Shown here one piece after another: positions 1-24,000 of a stretch of DNA of 38,023 nucleotides (its first letter is position 1; every line of letters begins with the position of its first letter). The position numbers were made by a program. Source of the stretch: Turneriella sp. (GTDB lineage Bacteria > Spirochaetota > Leptospiria > Turneriellales > Turneriellaceae); contig CBDIID010000001.1 of NCBI GenBank assembly GCA_965279515.1, positions 1 to 38,023 on the forward strand, in the 5' to 3' direction.

Positions 1-3000
1 GCATTCAGCATAGAGCGCCGCTGAAGAGAGCAGGCTAAATATCAAAACGATTGCGGGTTTCACAGTTCGGGCAGAGAATGTCAACCTGACCTTTGACGCG
101 CGAGTTGCCGCTTTTGTCGACCAGCTTGCCCACGGCGGTGAATTGAAAGTCGAGGCCTTCGGCATGGTAGTTGCCTTTACCATACTTCGCGGTGCCTTCC
201 ATAATGTAACCACAGGCGTGGCATTTAACCTTTAAACGAATCTTCTCAGCCATTAGTTGTTAAAGAAAATTCTGTAAGGCGCGGATGCCATGTCATTCAG
301 TTTTTCATTTGCATACTTTGCGTAATCGAGCAGCAAAAGATAGATCGTTTCTTCGTGCAGCAGGCGGGCGCTGAAACTTTGCCCGTCGTAAGCCACGCTT
401 TGCTCCAATTTTGCCATGTTGGTCTTGATGGCCGGCAGGTTCTTGTTGAGGTCGTATACCAGAAATTCACTGACGCTGTTGACGCGCGAGAGCATGGTGT
501 AAAGATCTGAACTCGTAGAATTAATTATGCCAAAAAAAGTATTCATTGTTCCTGTTGCCTGGCGTATCGTTGCGCGTACGGCATGGCGCTGGATATACGG
601 GGTTCGTCGCAGATCATCGACCGTTTTTTTCAGCTGTTGCAGCCGCTTTTCGAGAATGCTCATATGCCCGCCTTCAGATTTTATGGCATCGTAATATTGC
701 TGAAACATGATTGTCGAATTGATAATTTTTTCCAAGGGCATGGAGTGATCAAGCGAATAAAATGCTTCGTTGAACGTCGACGGTACAATTTCGATATTGA
801 TAAATTTGGCGCCAAAATAGCCCCACGAGCTCAGTGAAGCGCGGCTGCCGGTTTTGGGAATCGGAAAATCCGTGCGAATCTTTGCGACGATGCGGTGGCC
901 AGACATGTCAGATGTCAGGTGCTCGACCTCACCGATTTCCAGCGCACCCTGGTAGCGGACCTTTGTTCCGGGGCGGATATCCTCGATAAAAGTCGCGGAG
1001 AAAGACATGCGGTAATAGTCCAGGGAGCGGGCAATGCTGCGCGTGCCGAAATACCCCAAAAAAATCGCGAAAAACATCAGGACGGCAAAACCGATCAGAA
1101 GCGTAATTCGATCCGGGTTGCGTATCGAATCCCAGAACGACAACCATTCGGCGGTCGTCGCGGTTTCAGCTGGTTTTTTTTCTGAGGTCAGCATGCAGAA
1201 TCTGGACGGCGTTCATTGCCGCTTCCGAACCCATCTTGTTCTTCTCATAACACAGCAAGAGGATTTTCCGGCGATCCGGAAGATGCTCGAGATACAGAAA
1301 GGCGATGCCGAAGTTCCGTTTTCCCTCAAGCACTGTTCCGGTTTTTCCTGCCAAAAAGCGGAAACGCCGGTTCTGCCGAAGCGCGCGGCAAAAATCAGCC
1401 AGCGTGCCTTCGCAGGTTTGTCTTAAACCGTCCATAATTGTTCGCGCGGCCGGATTTCCATTCTCTTCGGCGCCGAGCAGCGCAGTGTACATGGCCAGTA
1501 GTTTATCTGCTTCGATGCCAGCGGGCAGGTCAAAGCCATAGACATTCACGGGTTTCACAATTTTCAGATCGGCCGGCCAGTCAAACCGCTGTCTCAGCCA
1601 TGCTTCATATTCCGCCAAGTTGAGACCCATAAACCGCGACAGGAAGTAATAGTTGCAGCTCTGCACCAGCGCGGTTTGTAAGGTCATGGCGCCATGGCCG
1701 GCCGGCGTCCAGCAGCGCAGGCGATCCGTACGTTTTTTCTCGGGCGGGCAAAAAATCGTCTCATCGGCTTTAAAACCCTTTTCGAGCAAATACCAGGCGG
1801 CAAAGGGCTTGAGAAGCGAGCCAACAGGCGCGGCCATGGTCTGGTTCTGCTGGTTGAGAATGGTGTATTTTCCCCCTGCATACTCCGCCATGACAAATGC
1901 CGACTTTTTTTCGGCCGAAAGGGCTAATCCTGAAAACAGGAAAATCAAAATTGGATTTACGGCGGCTTTAATTTTGCGCATTCAATGGCGGCAATGGTTG
2001 AAAACGCCGTCACTCTGGAAAGAGAACAGCTTTCCCTGAAGATCAACGAGATCTTTTACAGCATCCAGGGCGAGGGCTCTTATGCCCTTTACCCCTGTGT
2101 CTTTGTACGCCTGACCGGCTGCAACCTGCGCTGCGCCTGGTGTGACACGACCTATTCCTTTTTTGAAGGTGAGCCACAGACTCTGGCGCAGATTCTCGCA
2201 GAGGTGAACCGCTACAACTCAGAACTCGTCGAAGTGACCGGCGGAGAGCCTCTGCTGCAGAAAAACGTCTATGCTTTTTTTGAAATGCTGAAAGCCGCAG
2301 GCAAAAAAATCCTGATTGAAACCTCCGGATCGATTTTGATCGATCGTGTGCCTGAGTATGTGCATATCGTGCTCGACCTGAAAGCACCTGATTCCGGCGA
2401 AGCAGAAAAGAACCGTTATGAAAATCTGGGTTTCATCAAACCTTCGGATGATATTAAGATTGTTGTAGCATCCCAAAAAGACTTTGAATTTGCCGAAGAA
2501 ATTGCGGCGAAGTATGCGCTAGCGCAGAAAATGGAAAAACCGGTCATCATCCAGCCGGCATTCGGGCAACTCGACAGTGCCGAGGTGGGCGAATGGGTGA
2601 AAAACTCAATGACGCGCTTCCGCCTGGGCCTGCAACTGCATAAATTCATCTACGAACCCACTCTCCGGGCGGTTTAATGCTGATCGAAAAGAATTCGTCT
2701 TCGATTCGGCGCATTTTTTACCTTTTGTTCCGCAAGAGCATAAATGCCGGCGCCTGCACGGACACACATACAAAGTCGTGATCGGCGTTGAAGGTGATGT
2801 CAACGATGCCGGCTGGGTCATTGACTTTGCCGATATCAGCGCCGGTGTAAATCCCATTCTGCAGAGTATCGACCATACTTTGCTGAATGCGGTCGAAGGG
2901 CTCGACAATCCCACGGCAGAAAATATTGCCCTTTGGATTTTTACCCGTGTCAAACAGGCTATCCCCCTGTTAAGCTATGTCAGCGTGCAAGAAGGCCTGG

Positions 3001-21000: not shown

Positions 21001-24000
21001 GAATCGATAGGATAAAAGGCCTATTTGATTGTGACCATTGCGCAGCTCCGAAAGCAGATCTTGTGAGGTGTTGCAGGTTCTTCCGCCGAAAGGTTCAAAT
21101 GCGGTAACGAGCAGTTTCAAGAAGCAACACCTGAGCTTTTGGTATTGCCTGAAGCAGAGTGTCAATGAAATGTCATTTAAAACTTGCCGGGGACAGTTCT
21201 GTGCTATATTTTACCAAGTATGAAACAATACTTAATATACTTTAGCGTCCTCGCCGCGGTATTGAACTGTGGCCCTAAAATAGACCATGCTGAAGTTCGC
21301 AACCGCGCGAAATCAGCATTTGGCACCTTGCCGGCGAAAATACCTGGTTCTGAAAAAGACACCCCTGAACTGATCGCCTTGGGTAAAACCCTCTACAACG
21401 ATCGCCGCCTCTCCATCAACGATACGCAATCGTGTGCAAGCTGCCATGTGATTGAAGGTAAGAAAGGCGGCGTCGACAACACTAAGTTTAGCCCTGGTGC
21501 GAAAGGCAGTTTGGGCGGCCGCAACGCCCCTACAGTGCTCAACGCCGGCTTCCATTTTGTCCAGTTCTGGGATGGCCGGGCTGCGACCTTGTCTGACCAG
21601 GCTAAGGGGCCGATTCTGAATCCCGTCGAGATGGGCATGCCGAATGAAAAGGCCGTGCTTGAGAAACTTTCGAAGATTGCAGAATATAAAGAGGCTTTTG
21701 CCAAGGCATTTCCCGGTGCGAAGAATTCTATCACTTACCAAAATCTTGCTGATGCGATTGCAGCGTTTGAGCGCACGCTGATCACGCATGACCGCTTGGA
21801 TGATTATCTGAACGGCGACGATAAGGCGCTGACAAAAGAAGAAATCCTGGGTATGCAAACCTTCATGACGCAGGGATGCACAACCTGCCACATCGGGCCC
21901 TTGCTCGGTGGCAACAGCTACCGCAAAATGGGTCAGGCGAAACCGTATGAGACGAAAGATCTCGGGCGCTACGAGGTGACAAAAAAAGAAGAAGATAAGT
22001 TTATGTTCAAAGTTCCATCGTTGCGCAACATTGCTTTGACTGAGCCATACTTCCACGATGGTTCTGCCGCAACACTTTCCGAAGCTGTTGCAAAAATGGC
22101 AGTCCACCAGCTGGGCAAACAGCTCGGCGAAAAAGAAGTCGGCCAGATCGTGACTTTCCTCAAAGCTCTTACAGACAAAGAACGTCTCTAAACAGGGCAG
22201 GGTGGGGGATCTCCCCCGCCCTCCAATTCTTTAACCTCTCAACATTTTTCACCCAAGGCCGATAAACGAATATGGCCCGCTATGCGATTTATGCTCTGCT
22301 GCTTGTTCTGCTCAATGCCCTGAGTTCCGCTTCTGCAGCGAATGTCGACAATGACTACAGAGATGCGCTCTCTTTATTCCAGCGCCGGGACATTGCATCC
22401 TGCCTGCGTACCATCACCCTCCTGGAGAGAAATCTCGAACAGAAAGCAGACCATGCGGATTCACAGGCCCTGATCGCCTATGCCTATGCGCACCAGGCTT
22501 TTATCCTTTCGCAGATCGGTGAATCCGGAGCTGACTACCTGAATTCCGCCGACGCCTTCTCGAAGGCTGTGCTTGCGCAGCAGCCGCAGAATCCATTTGC
22601 GCGCAAGGCAAAACTTTTGTTGCAGCTCATCGGCGGTAATTTTGCCGATGTGCGCAAGACCTTTGAAAAAGAGCTGACGGATAAAGAAACCGACGCAGAT
22701 CTTTGGTATATGTCTGCGGTTGCCGGCGATGCCGACAAAGCCGCAAAGTCACTCGGCACGGCACTCCGGCTCAACGCCGATCTGGTGTGGATTTACACCG
22801 ACATGGCCTTTCGTGCGCTCAAGATGAATGACCTCTCAACCGCGGAAAAGTGGCTGCGCGCGCTCGAGGCGCGCAAACCCGGCATTGCCGACATCGATCT
22901 CTTAAAGGCTACCATTGCGGCGCAGAGGCAGGATAAAAAGACAGTCCAGGCATCATGGAGCGATTTCTCGCGCAAGGCGCCTGATTTTGCACTCGTCGCC
23001 CGGTTTGCTGGCCGCGCTAAAAAGTAATCATTGCAACGGCAGGGTGCTTCTCAACCCGGCATCCGAGTTCAATACATCTATCAGCAATTTCAGTAATTCA
23101 CAGCGCGGTAGATCAGCGCGTGCCTTCCAGCGGTCCTGGAGCGGGGCTGTTTGCGCCGGCGCAGTTGTGCACTTGGCCGTGTCAGACATCGCGAGTACAA
23201 ACGGTTCGGCGACGGGGTAGGGGAGCACCTGCCAACGCATGTCGAGGTAGACATGCGCCATTTCATGCATGAGATCGGTGAGCTTGGCGCTACGCCTCAG
23301 AATTCTGCCTCTCTTGCGGTCGAGAGCCGATTGCATTTTTGAGCCGCCTTTGATTTCAAAGAAGTAATTCCGCCCGGTGCAAACCATGAGCTCGTCAGGG
23401 AACCGCGCCGCGCCATAAGTTTCGTTAAAAAGCCGCCAAAACGTCTGCGCCCCGGTTGTCTTCACAAGCGGCATGCATTCAGCATAGAGCGCCGCTGAAG
23501 AGAGCAGGCTAAATATCAAAACGATTGCGGGTTTCACAGTTCGGGCAGAGAATGTCAACCTGACCTTTGACGCGCGAGTTGCCGCTTTTGTCGACCAGCT
23601 TGCCCACGGCGGTGAATTGAAAGTCGAGGCCTTCGGCATGGTAGTTGCCTTTACCATACTTCGCGGTGCCTTCCATAATGTAACCACAGGCGTGGCATTT
23701 AACCTTTAAACGAATCTTCTCAGCCATTAGTTGTTAAAGAAAATTCTGTAAGGCGCGGATGCCATGTCATTCAGTTTTTCATTTGCATACTTTGCGTAAT
23801 CGAGCAGCAAAAGATAGATCGTTTCTTCGTGCAGCAGGCGGGCGCTGAAACTTTGCCCGTCGTAAGCCACGCTTTGCTCCAATTTTGCCATGTTGGTCTT
23901 GATGGCCGGCAGGTTCTTGTTGAGGTCGTATACCAGAAATTCACTGACGCTGTTGACGCGCGAGAGCATGGTGTAAAGATCTGAACTCGTAGAATTAATT

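Follow-up and report, generated by a model that had tools for sequence, protein, structure and literature searches.

Is the small circle carried on contig C1 of this Turneriella genome a plasmid, or is it a counterpart of the second chromosome of Leptospira? The window, by which we mean the whole stretch of 38,023 nucleotides that was analysed, was described in an earlier note as a 23.47-kb circle assembled 1.6 times. Self-BLAST confirmed that description: positions 23475-38023 are an assembly repeat of 1-14543 (99.93% identity, 10 gaps). All ten differences between the two copies are single-base indels that lie inside or adjoin short base runs. queD is frameshifted in copy 1 and intact in copy 2 (26151-26507), where genes at 7514-10410 are broken. 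Public contigs span the junction 23474/23475 with no differences, and a further one has the intact queD; since the public runs may derive from the source sample, they do not confirm either point independently. Among relatives, terminal overlaps were found in 5 of 16 contigs tested. The window has no DNA match on the chromosomal contig C3, as the note had said. Concatemer artefacts are present in the assembly at both C1 and C2.

Table 1. Features of the C1 circle (an empty strand cell means that no single strand is given)
Feature	Position	Strand	Remark
One unit of the circular replicon	1..23474		self-BLAST; same gene order in pTURPA.01
MlaD/MCE protein and short transpeptidase-domain protein	253..1981	-	
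queE, queD (frameshifted here), queC	1985..3745	+	old cargo in Turneriellales
maf, DUF423, MFS transporter, two hypothetical genes, DEDDh exonuclease	3705..8332		
DEDDh exonuclease	6709-7575	-	passes TIGR00573
hyp332	8381..9379	-	no known family; left flank of origin cassette
Fis-type HTH protein	9376..10410	-	Pfam HTH_8; divergent from parA
Candidate parS, two 16-bp palindromes TGTCGGAYRTCCGACA	10456-10471, 10503-10518		
ParA	10569..11327	+	family match
ParB, CTPase-type ParB_N + HTH	11311..12144	+	44% to chromosome II
Candidate rep promoter	12177..12201	+	-35 TTGACG; overlapped by box ATTATGTCACAT at 12190
Predicted ~50-nt counter-transcribed RNA	12310..12362	-	predicted strand and role
Antisense promoter	12364..12396	-	-35 at 12396-12391; second box at 12364-12375
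Rep, winged-HTH (HTH_36) phage-type initiator with DnaD-like region	12430..13335	+	
Conserved hydrophobic protein of no known family	13374..14009	+	89% to pTURPA.01; no Pfam match
Discoidin (F5/8) protein, 32-aa repeats	14023..16416	+	right flank of origin cassette
mtnB, mtnD, mtnC (methionine salvage)	16413..18289	+	Pfam/NCBIfam-type family matches
glpK, glycerol kinase	18323..19807	+	family match; recent cargo
bcp, pcp, di-haem peroxidase, TPR protein, hypothetical gene across junction	19808..23687		

The origin region provides the central evidence. C1 and chromosome II of L. interrogans (350,181 bp, NZ_CP020413.2) share a block in the common order hyp332, Fis-HTH, parS, parA, parB, rep (LIC20276 in Leptospira) and discoidin (LIC20001). 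At the left flank, hyp332 is 24.5% identical to chromosome II at 290.8-291.6 kb; its predicted model (pLDDT 84) has no clear fold match. The Fis-type protein matches an HTH protein in the same position on chromosome II. The palindrome TGTCGGAYRTCCGACA is identical there (positions 293015 and 293198), was found in 145 of 164 class genomes compared with 2 matches for the control, and has no site on C3 when one mismatch is allowed. It is the probable binding site of ParB and is unlike the canonical parS that C3 has. C1 ParA is 60% identical to its chromosome II counterpart, 39% to ParA of a Leptospira accessory plasmid and 34-37% to the ParA proteins of C3; among the records listed outside Turneriella, no other plasmid exceeds 40%. 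The discoidin gene, which contains 96-nt repeats and is present in 171 of 190 class genomes, including all 114 of family f9, encodes the orthologue of LIC20001, with 35% identity at 296.5-298.5 kb. The two replicons also share the antisense unit of the rep leader, mtnB and mtnD (29-30% identity for the latter two). We conclude that C1 is very probably a mini-chromid orthologous to Leptospira chromosome II, both having descended vertically from one replicon of the class ancestor. This orthology is the point that the earlier note missed.

C1 is nevertheless no typical chromosome II, for which we took a size of about 270-490 kb plus asd, metF and hem cargo as the mark. It is 15 times smaller and lacks asd, metF, hem, pyrF, acpP, efp and others; many of these missing genes have their best matches scattered over C3, which holds 77 of the 83 best matches of chromosome II ORFs. 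Given these matches and a length of only 23.5 kb, C1 is a miniature orthologue. Conversely, queEDC, mtnC and glpK are on C1 and not on chromosome II. C1 has no tRNA gene, and none is given for chromosome II in Table 1 of PMC2229662. The replicon measures 15-32 kb in most Turneriellales and 173-486 kb in Leptospirales. The closest record is pTURPA.01 of Turneriella parva DSM 21527 (NC_018021.1, 25,287 bp), a closed circle collinear with all 27 C1 proteins tested (33-92% identity; ParA 92%), which has an IS481 transposase that C1 lacks and is typed as non-mobilizable. The T. parva genome paper files it as a plasmid, and the words replicon and chromid are absent from its text.

What does the circle carry? 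The earlier note held that queC, queD, queE, mtnB, mtnC and glpK occur in this genome only on C1 and that their pathway partners are chromosomal. The first statement was confirmed, for mtnD too, and the second was confirmed for QueF, Tgt, QueA and MtnA. In tblastn searches with 27 C1 proteins, QueD, QueC, MtnB, MtnD, MtnC and GlpK, as well as Pcp, Rep and discoidin, had no match on C3 at E<=1e-3, and the sole match of QueE was a radical-SAM protein (27%, E 4e-4). HMM searches placed QueC and GlpK above cut-off on C1 only, and Aldolase_II likewise on C1 only. QueF, two Tgt proteins, QueA and MtnA were each found on C3. C3 also has four other MlaD matches, and its sole DEDDh protein is KapD-like. 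The que, mtn and glpK genes are sole copies, as the note proposed, but they do not define the replicon: glpK is replicon-borne only in genera g1 and g6 (one genome, G019, has it on the rpoB-bearing contig), and Leptospira chromosome II lacks queEDC, mtnC and glpK. Families f1, f6 and f7 have queEDC as part of the replicon, and in f4 it adjoins discoidin. No Rfam match was found on C1, nor any ribosomal-protein family among its 30 ORFs. Many bacteria can dispense with glpK, queuosine synthesis and methionine salvage.

The replicon appears to be old and vertically inherited, and here the evidence reaches beyond what had been claimed. rep was found in 163 of 190 class genomes, almost always in one copy, and ParA identity tracks RpoB identity across relatives. 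Trees of the replicon and of RpoB on 27 rows have 15 of 24 splits in common, compared with a mean of 0.25 and a maximum of 3 after shuffling; no strongly supported splits conflict, and the patristic r is 0.94. The other nine splits differ, and RpoB gives little resolution at the deep nodes of Turneriellales. Against this, only 11 of the order's 25 high-quality genomes have rep. Of 13 same-genus genomes, 7 yielded neither rep nor discoidin, hyp332 or parS; G030, a single contig that is 99% complete, is one of them. In six of the 13, one of them single-contig, rep, queC and glpK are jointly missing. The absence of the origin block from the seven is probably an effect of binning. Replicon-less genomes retain queF (4/5) and mtnA (4/4), and one genome, G023, has only a 3.2-kb piece of the replicon, which points to partial binning. 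The note's warning that metagenome-assembled genomes without the replicon look auxotrophic for queuosine precursors is thus supported.

Measured against the chromid criteria of PMC6090056, C1 combines plasmid-type maintenance (parA, parB, its own candidate parS and a phage-type Rep, with dnaA on C3) with a composition near that of the chromosome (GC 51.9% vs 53.1%). Compared with 206 windows of C3, it lies within the range, near its edge (GC 15th, tetranucleotide 86th and delta* 95th percentile), and its codon usage is at the 90th percentile of 168 gene blocks. Two core genes, hyp332 and discoidin, are chromosomal in the single-contig genomes G005, G273 and G450, and queC is chromosomal in G005. 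Conservation across the class and congruence with RpoB speak for vertical inheritance, despite the absences within the genus. C1 carries no classic essential gene, and the patterns of retention bear on essentiality only indirectly. Among the 30 ORFs, Pfam and NCBIfam searches found no relaxase or transfer family; MobA is carried on C2.

Outside the class, hyp332 is chromosomal. It is adjacent to and divergent from discoidin in 8 of 20 outgroup loci, none of which has parAB, rep or parS; in the other 12, discoidin lies away from hyp332. A clear Rep orthologue was found in none of 31 outgroup genomes, three of which have weak matches elsewhere. Judging from this gene order, the replicon probably began as a phage-type rep-par module that inserted between hyp332 and discoidin and was excised together with its flanks. 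Family f3 may illustrate the opposite course: rep is absent from all four genomes, all of which keep discoidin, hyp332, Fis-HTH, the exonuclease and the MFS gene, in three cases on contigs of 1.2-2.1 Mb.

Other readings of the replicon have to be weighed against this one. That C1 is a foreign plasmid or a chromosomal fragment joined to C3 by assembly or binning is largely refuted and extremely improbable; the concatemer artefacts and the indirect evidence for C1-C3 linkage would allow it, but the closed isolate record is collinear, C1 ParA and C3 RpoB diverge by matching amounts from each relative, and the pathways on the two contigs are complementary. An origin by schism, from a duplicated origin region of the main chromosome, would fit the chromosomal location of the flanking genes outside the class and a passage of the preprint 10.1101/264945 that places the Leptospira ParA in a cluster otherwise specific to spirochaete chromosomes. 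We regard it as very unlikely, because C1 has no dnaA and its Rep matches phage initiators, its parS and ParA are unlike those of C3, and the 20 outgroup loci lack parAB. The circle might also be orthologous to chromosome II and yet no longer needed: a low-copy plasmid, stable and not mobile, that persists because queuosine, methionine salvage or glycerol use improves fitness, and that some Turneriella lineages have truly lost. The joint absences within the genus, one in a single-contig genome, and the lack of any classic essential gene speak for this; the partners kept by replicon-less genomes, the 3.2-kb piece in G023, the presence of discoidin throughout f9 and the core cargo retained in f3 after rep loss make it unlikely. 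Somewhat doubtful, but a serious possibility, is that C1 is what remains of a formerly large chromosome II, reduced as its genes went over to chromosome I; the ancestral form would then not have been small. mtnB and mtnD, distant from the origin, are on both replicons, the contigs that bear the block in f4 are larger (38+28 kb; 83+72 kb) and f3 shows gene flow back to the chromosome. On the other side, three families have circles of 15-32 kb; outside the origin block, MtnB, MtnD and an ambiguous Bcp are the only ones of the 27 C1 proteins with matches on chromosome II; and the C3 best matches of chromosome II ORFs are evenly spread with no integrated block, although this spread is not decisive, as old rearrangement could have erased a block.

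A further choice concerns the leader of rep. The gene probably starts at 12430 and not at 12322, since the 36 codons thereby dropped fall in a leader that is conserved as non-coding sequence, and relatives do not have them in frame. Rep matches PHROGs 270 (initiator, E 1.4e-7) and 186 (DnaD-like, E 2e-7); its fold matches phage initiators and, weakly, the N-domains of solved initiators, and no relatives of its family were found among viral contigs. The candidate rep promoter is kept in most aligned leaders and was not called by a consensus promoter scan. On the opposite strand, the predicted antisense RNA consists of an AUCCAAC start, a short hairpin and a terminator hairpin with U tract; it has no Rfam match. 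The unit with its terminator is present in all 37 aligned leaders, compared with 2 of 37 shuffled ones. Could the leader instead be a DNA element, an origin or a dif-like recombination site? By itself the RNA folds no better than shuffles (z -1.3), and in Leptospira paired boxes have an 11-6-11 layout that we take to resemble dif. The leader also survives in two genomes without this rep gene, G015 and G019 (a lambda-O-type Rep is present on G019:C50), so it must be more than a rep regulator. However, the terminator is strand-specific and its stem is retained while the sequence varies in all 37 leaders, the -35 keeps a spacing of 34-35 nt to the RNA start at all 53 loci even though the box shifts, and Turneriellales have not kept the left arm of the layout that resembles dif. 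Moreover, the orthologous region in L. interrogans overlaps a known transcript, LIC2nc40, with RNA-seq signal. A DNA element therefore seems distinctly unlikely, and an antisense RNA gene is our preferred reading. Both leader promoters are overlapped by boxes of a motif that recurs across the genome and also lies upstream of dnaA and nrdJ; speculatively, these boxes may tie initiation to the cell cycle.

These observations suggest how the miniature chromosome II might work. Rep would start replication at or near its own gene, within which the cumulative GC skew has its minimum (12892), the antisense RNA from the parB-rep gap would limit Rep synthesis, ParA and ParB would act on their private parS, and the boxes could link both promoters to the host cycle. 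The replicon would be kept because it holds the sole copies of hyp332, discoidin and part-pathways whose other halves are chromosomal. Tentatively, the Turneriellales circles may stand near the founding state of chromosome II, indispensable from the start. If so, the life stages of a chromid are visible: a small circle, 15-fold growth, an initiator swap (G019), fusion (G084) and return to the chromosome (f3). Throughout the class, an antisense RNA not described before would then control replication, together with a host regulator that sits upstream of dnaA as well. A comparison of C1 with chromosome II suggests how that second chromosome originated and what controls its replication.

Borrelia cp26 is another very small replicon long retained for its sole copies of needed genes. 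Within Leptospira, the phage-plasmids LE1 and p74 have a partition operon followed by a phage-type rep, as C1 does, and this type has been proposed as the progenitor of chromosome II (PMC2229662). We considered C1 as an LE1-like phage-plasmid and rejected this, since no virion or packaging gene was found among its 30 ORFs (Pfam, NCBIfam) or 13 of its proteins (PHROGs), apart from a weak tail-collar-fibre match of discoidin (E 0.0036). The repABC replicons of Alphaproteobacteria (PMC6090056) share the parA-parB-rep layout and parS near the operon, and their parB-rep gap encodes a counter-transcribed RNA of ~50 nt, which on C1 is predicted. Their initiator differs from the HTH_36/DnaD-like phage-type protein of C1: HTH_36 matched 15 of 15 Rep proteins, and RepC was not among the matches listed at E<=1. 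By analogy, C1 appears to work like a repABC replicon without being one. The rrn plasmids (PMC10645730) are likewise very small and long retained as sole-copy carriers. The note saw something new in one of the smallest chromids of a free-living bacterium; size by itself is not new, because these indispensable plasmids of 8.4-30 kb were already known. They have Rep_3 initiators and rRNA operons, neither of which is on C1, and, unlike them, C1 is homologous to a large, accepted second chromosome.

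C1 is a miniature orthologue of Leptospira chromosome II, and the correspondence is a real feature of the replicon. Its Rep protein matched just three of 72,556 plasmid records: pTURPA.01, the replicon of cultured T. parva that is filed as a plasmid (77% identity), and a pair from L. interrogans, 350 and 394 kb long (38%). pTURPA.01 is a closed circle of 25,287 bp in which 27 of 27 C1 proteins are collinear. Among the 25 plasmid records listed for ParA, T. parva reached 92% and the two L. interrogans records 60%, all others staying at or below 40%. In L. interrogans chromosome II (NZ_CP020413.2), hyp332, the Fis-type HTH gene, parA, parB, rep and discoidin were all matched in the order and orientation of C1 (ParA 60%, ParB 44%, Rep 40%, discoidin 35%). 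This record, 350,181 bp long, agrees in size with chromosome II as given in PMC2229662 and bears asd, metF and hem genes. Elsewhere on it MtnB and MtnD had matches at 29-30%, and Bcp was 38% identical to a chromosome II protein versus 37% to its paralogue on C3, the main chromosome; the remaining 18 of the 27 C1 proteins had no match when the whole record was searched. The palindrome TGTCGGAYRTCCGACA, a candidate parS, occurs twice upstream of parA on both C1 and chromosome II. It was not found on C3, where two parS sites of the canonical type lie close to the skew minimum, and was detected in 145 of the 164 class genomes at least 90% complete, the reversed control giving two matches. PLSDB files the chromosome II record as a plasmid, and a second, divergent parAB pair on that record (36% to C1) lies ~22 kb from the origin.

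Orthology with vertical descent is almost certain. Rep is present in 163 of 190 class genomes (113/114 in family f9, 34/42 in f8, 10/19 in f1 and 0/4 in f3) and discoidin in 171, and ParA identity to C1 tracks RpoB identity to C3 nearly one to one. FastTree phylogenies of RpoB and of ParA+ParB+discoidin were compared over 27 rows, one of them a named plasmid record joined to a genome handle by matching coordinates; the search had covered 30 genomes, among them one with no more than a short stretch of RpoB and two lacking parAB at the locus. The two trees share 15 of 24 splits, against a mean of 0.25 and a maximum of 3 in 1,000 label shuffles. Moreover, patristic distances correlate at r 0.94 and no splits with support of at least 0.95 conflict; deep Turneriellales nodes are poorly resolved in the RpoB tree.

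The earlier note had read C1 as one circle assembled 1.6 times and as the sole carrier of several genes whose pathway partners are chromosomal, and both claims hold. By self-BLAST, the two copies align at 99.93% with 10 gaps and C1 has no DNA match to C3. The assembly consists of C1 (38,023 bp), C2 (19,790 bp) and C3 (4,840,723 bp). The copies differ at 10 positions, each a single-base indel, which break queD in copy 1 and a group of genes in copy 2; in public contigs, which may derive from the source sample, the junction is spanned, queD is intact and there are 0 differences. When all 27 C1 proteins were searched, C3 gave no match to QueD, QueC, MtnB, MtnD, MtnC, GlpK, Rep or discoidin, with HMM searches in agreement, and QueF, Tgt, MtnA and QueA were located on C3. 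Two full-length tgt genes exceed the family cut-off. glpK is recent cargo, replicon-borne in genera g1 and g6 only. The identity of the C1 exonuclease as Pol III epsilon was not established: it passes TIGR00573, but only 1 of 96 f9 genomes matches (E<=1e-20) and its C-terminal region looks WYL-like. In one related contig queC is fragmented, perhaps through assembly indels. C2, whose 6.6-kb unit was assembled three times, is a mobilizable restriction-modification plasmid of an ordinary kind. It encodes a cytosine methylase, an endonuclease of NgoBV type and the relaxase MobA, and its tetranucleotide distance is at the 96th percentile of C3 windows. C3 also contains a ~100-bp repeat in many dispersed copies.

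Positions of features on C1, the other contigs and related replicons
Feature	Replicon or contig	Position	Remark
Redundant assembly	C1	1-14543 = 23475-38023	
Genes broken in copy 2	C1	7514-10410	
Discoidin repeats	C1	14980-15640	
Origin block	chromosome II	290.8-298.5 kb	hyp332 to discoidin
Second parAB pair	NZ_CP020413.2	317041-318658	
LIC2nc40	L. interrogans	348,946-349,168	strand not given
Origin block	G084:C2	within 1156001-1216000	
~240-bp repeat	L102 (G015:C134)	5390-5630, 7870-8110	
Lambda-O-type rep	L103 (G019:C50)	11922-12932	
Leader element	L103 (G019:C50)	7270-7365	
dnaA	C3	4282720-4284141	
GC-skew minimum, canonical parS	C3	2844849-2866796	
Chromosomal parAB	C3	4.51 Mb	
Near-palindromic boxes	C3	4284214, 4398158, 820665	examples
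tgt	C3	373320-374393, 3338501-3339577	
~100-bp repeat	C3	104000-168000	and elsewhere
Fragmented queC	L084 (G028:C31)	1079-1589	
C2 unit	L212	1-6627	

Replicon size differs between the orders. Terminal overlaps were seen in 5 of 16 contigs or records tested (23.8, 32.3, 22.8, 17.4 and 17.3 kb), and several ~15-kb contigs carry circularly permuted core genes without such an overlap. The recurrent core comprises the exonuclease, hyp332, Fis-HTH, parA, parB, rep, discoidin, queEDC and mlaD, usually with an MFS gene; pieces from family f4 are larger. Of 13 Leptospirales cases fetched, 11 have the block on contigs of 173-486 kb and one on a 60-kb fragment. In the thirteenth, G084, the whole block sits in a 1.41-Mb contig with chromosome II genes on either side, which is either a fusion or a second replicon of very large size. 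When 258 chromosome II ORFs were queried, C3 took 77 of the 83 best matches, evenly spread, so that chromosome II cargo as a single integrated block on C3 was rejected. The even spread is easier to explain by growth in Leptospirales than by transfer of a block, and we rank old shrinkage of a larger chromosome II below growth. One bin (G013:C102 and G013:C22) holds two distinct circular copies of 22.8 and 17.4 kb (GC 32% and 27%), one of which probably belongs to another organism.

Absence also allows more than one reading. Rep, discoidin, hyp332 and parS are missing from 7 of 13 same-genus genomes; six of these also lack queC and glpK, and the seventh (G023) holds a 3.2-kb piece with queEDC. 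Among the replicon-lacking genomes tested, queF was kept in 4/5 and mtnA in 4/4. Because absence is all-or-none and the partners are orphaned, it points to binning loss. Since queF and mtnA can both act in salvage routes, true loss in some of these genomes is possible. MAGs rated 99% complete can miss the whole replicon and then seem impaired in making queuosine, salvaging methionine and using glycerol. Family f3 is a genuine exception, in which cargo survives loss of the replicon: rep is gone, yet hyp332, Fis-HTH, the exonuclease and MFS remain together, three genomes having them on contigs of 1.2-2.1 Mb and the fourth on one of 70 kb (loci L174-L177). The genomes represent successive stages: G003 and G004 still have parAB attached, and the locus of G002 and G005 is without it. 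Discoidin and queEDC are located elsewhere, and a parS persists inside hyp332 in three genomes.

How the replicon arose is suggested by outgroups. The hyp332 profile matches 158 of 401 phylum genomes, including at least nine families outside the class. Of 20 outgroup loci fetched, 8 have discoidin and hyp332 side by side and divergently transcribed, surrounded by housekeeping genes such as valS, aroC and ruvB; these eight have no parAB, rep or parS. Both genes are chromosomal in two single-contig genomes, far apart in G273. A clear Rep orthologue was found in 0 of 31 outgroup genomes, with three weak matches (E 3e-8 or weaker). On C1 and chromosome II, hyp332 and discoidin are again divergent and are separated by Fis-HTH, parS, parAB, leader and rep. 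Most simply, and we favour this somewhat, a rep-par module would have inserted between hyp332 and discoidin and then excised together with flanking DNA. This would supply a site for the LE1-like phage origin proposed for chromosome II (PMC2229662). For hyp332 there was no usable Atlas match; its predicted model had a best Z of 10.1 to a helical repeat and no BFVD match at E<=0.001, which does not imply a new fold. The 32-aa repeats of discoidin carry a G(I/M)xQ(L/F)A motif and resemble those of phage tail fibres, and the protein has a weak PHROG match. Outgroup discoidin copies are as long as 930-1130 aa.

Rep matches a PHROG initiator family (E 1.4e-7) and a DnaD-like family (E 2e-7). In BFVD its predicted model (pLDDT 65) matches replication proteins of phages (best E 1.3e-6); matches to solved initiator N-domains are weak, none in the PDB reaching E<=0.001; among viral contigs, 44 pattern matches yielded 0 confirmed relatives. 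The GC-skew minimum of C1 falls within rep, and we infer that Rep initiates replication. In the literature consulted, the chromosome II rep is putative. A complete 17.3-kb circle (G019:C50) has lost both the HTH_36 rep and the Fis-HTH gene but encodes a lambda-O-type Rep (PF04492, E 5e-29), which fits functional replacement.

The parB-rep gap, or leader, holds a conserved non-coding unit that quite probably encodes a predicted antisense RNA. On the minus strand, TTGAC precedes a start resembling AUCCAAC by 34-35 nt in 53 of 53 loci (related and partly redundant), a spacing that stays fixed while the internal box shifts by up to 4 nt. Downstream come a short hairpin and a terminator whose stem sequence varies by lineage; in windows picked so as to contain the U tract, 37 of 37 aligned leaders passed -8 kcal/mol before that tract, versus 2 of 37 shuffles. 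By itself the RNA shows no unusual stability (z -1.3), in contrast to the sense leader (z -2.2 to -4.4). A sigma-70 scan called no promoter in the leader, and Rfam had no match on C1 and only chance-level matches at the chromosome II origin. In L. interrogans, LIC2nc40 was reported in the 5' UTR of LIC20276, the chromosome II rep (PMC3953431), and observed again (PMC5243855); placed by the offset of LIC20001, the discoidin gene, it falls on the leader and covers most of the predicted RNA. The Zhukova supplements contain none of the four LIC terms. The unit is kept in G015 and G019 though the HTH_36 rep is missing, so it may serve a second role. The G015 contig, which is incomplete and has no rep, carries a ~240-bp repeat twice, once before parA and once after the leader. 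A dif regular expression matched neither C1 nor C3 and is uninformative for this lineage.

Both candidate leader promoters are overlapped by the box ATGWGACATAAT, written as the pattern ATG[AT][CG]ACATAAT. C3 has 35 such sites, 20 of them intergenic versus 7.5% non-coding DNA, and the exact core occurs 25 times against a permutation mean of 0.6. Neighbours, taken as 35 ORFs from 20 chosen regions, include dnaA, nrdJ, a UvrD-type helicase gene, tuf, a cytosine methylase gene, flhB and a LexA-like gene; all of these but the last have the box on their upstream side. Our guess is that a host regulator acting at the box couples initiation with the cell cycle. LexA1 has a binding site upstream of LIC20276, and its published box is CTnnACnnnnGTnnAG (PMC4756842); identity with our box was rejected because the sequences differ. 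The box is near-palindromic. On C3, dnaA lies ~1.4 Mb from the GC-skew minimum and canonical parS sites, and chromosomal parAB maps elsewhere.

C1 has the maintenance system of a plasmid, is inherited vertically and carries core genes that lie on the chromosome in other genomes, and its composition is marginally that of a chromid; it is probably a chromid in that it is indispensable. No genome-wide data on essentiality in Leptospira were found in the literature. The T. parva genome paper gives only a plasmid (PMC3746428). The closest published hint of orthology in the literature found is a single sentence, which says that the second replicons of Leptospira have ParA proteins of a cluster otherwise confined to spirochaete chromosomes, the T. 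parva plasmid being the sole exception (10.1101/264945). Orthology, parS and the antisense RNA are unstated in the literature found, a search outside which most subscription papers lie; the accessible parts of PMC13224635, PMC4338851 and PMC4756842 state none of them, and pTURPA and TGTCGGA had 0 occurrences among the matches listed.

How Leptospira chromosome II arose and how its replication is controlled could be tested in a minimal system, the 23-25-kb orthologue of a cultured, free-living species. The comparison yields predictions for parS, initiator, antisense RNA and founding insertion site. It also moves the age of the chromid from genus level back to the class root, and chromid status need not track size. 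Published work reports a chromosome-to-replicon coverage of ~1 for large replicons of 14 strains including Leptospira (PMC13342612) and a precedent for small indispensable replicons (PMC10645730). The C1 initiator differs from that of repABC, and the predicted RNA of the leader has the layout of the ~50-nt ctRNA between repB and repC of those replicons, as PMC6090056 describes it.
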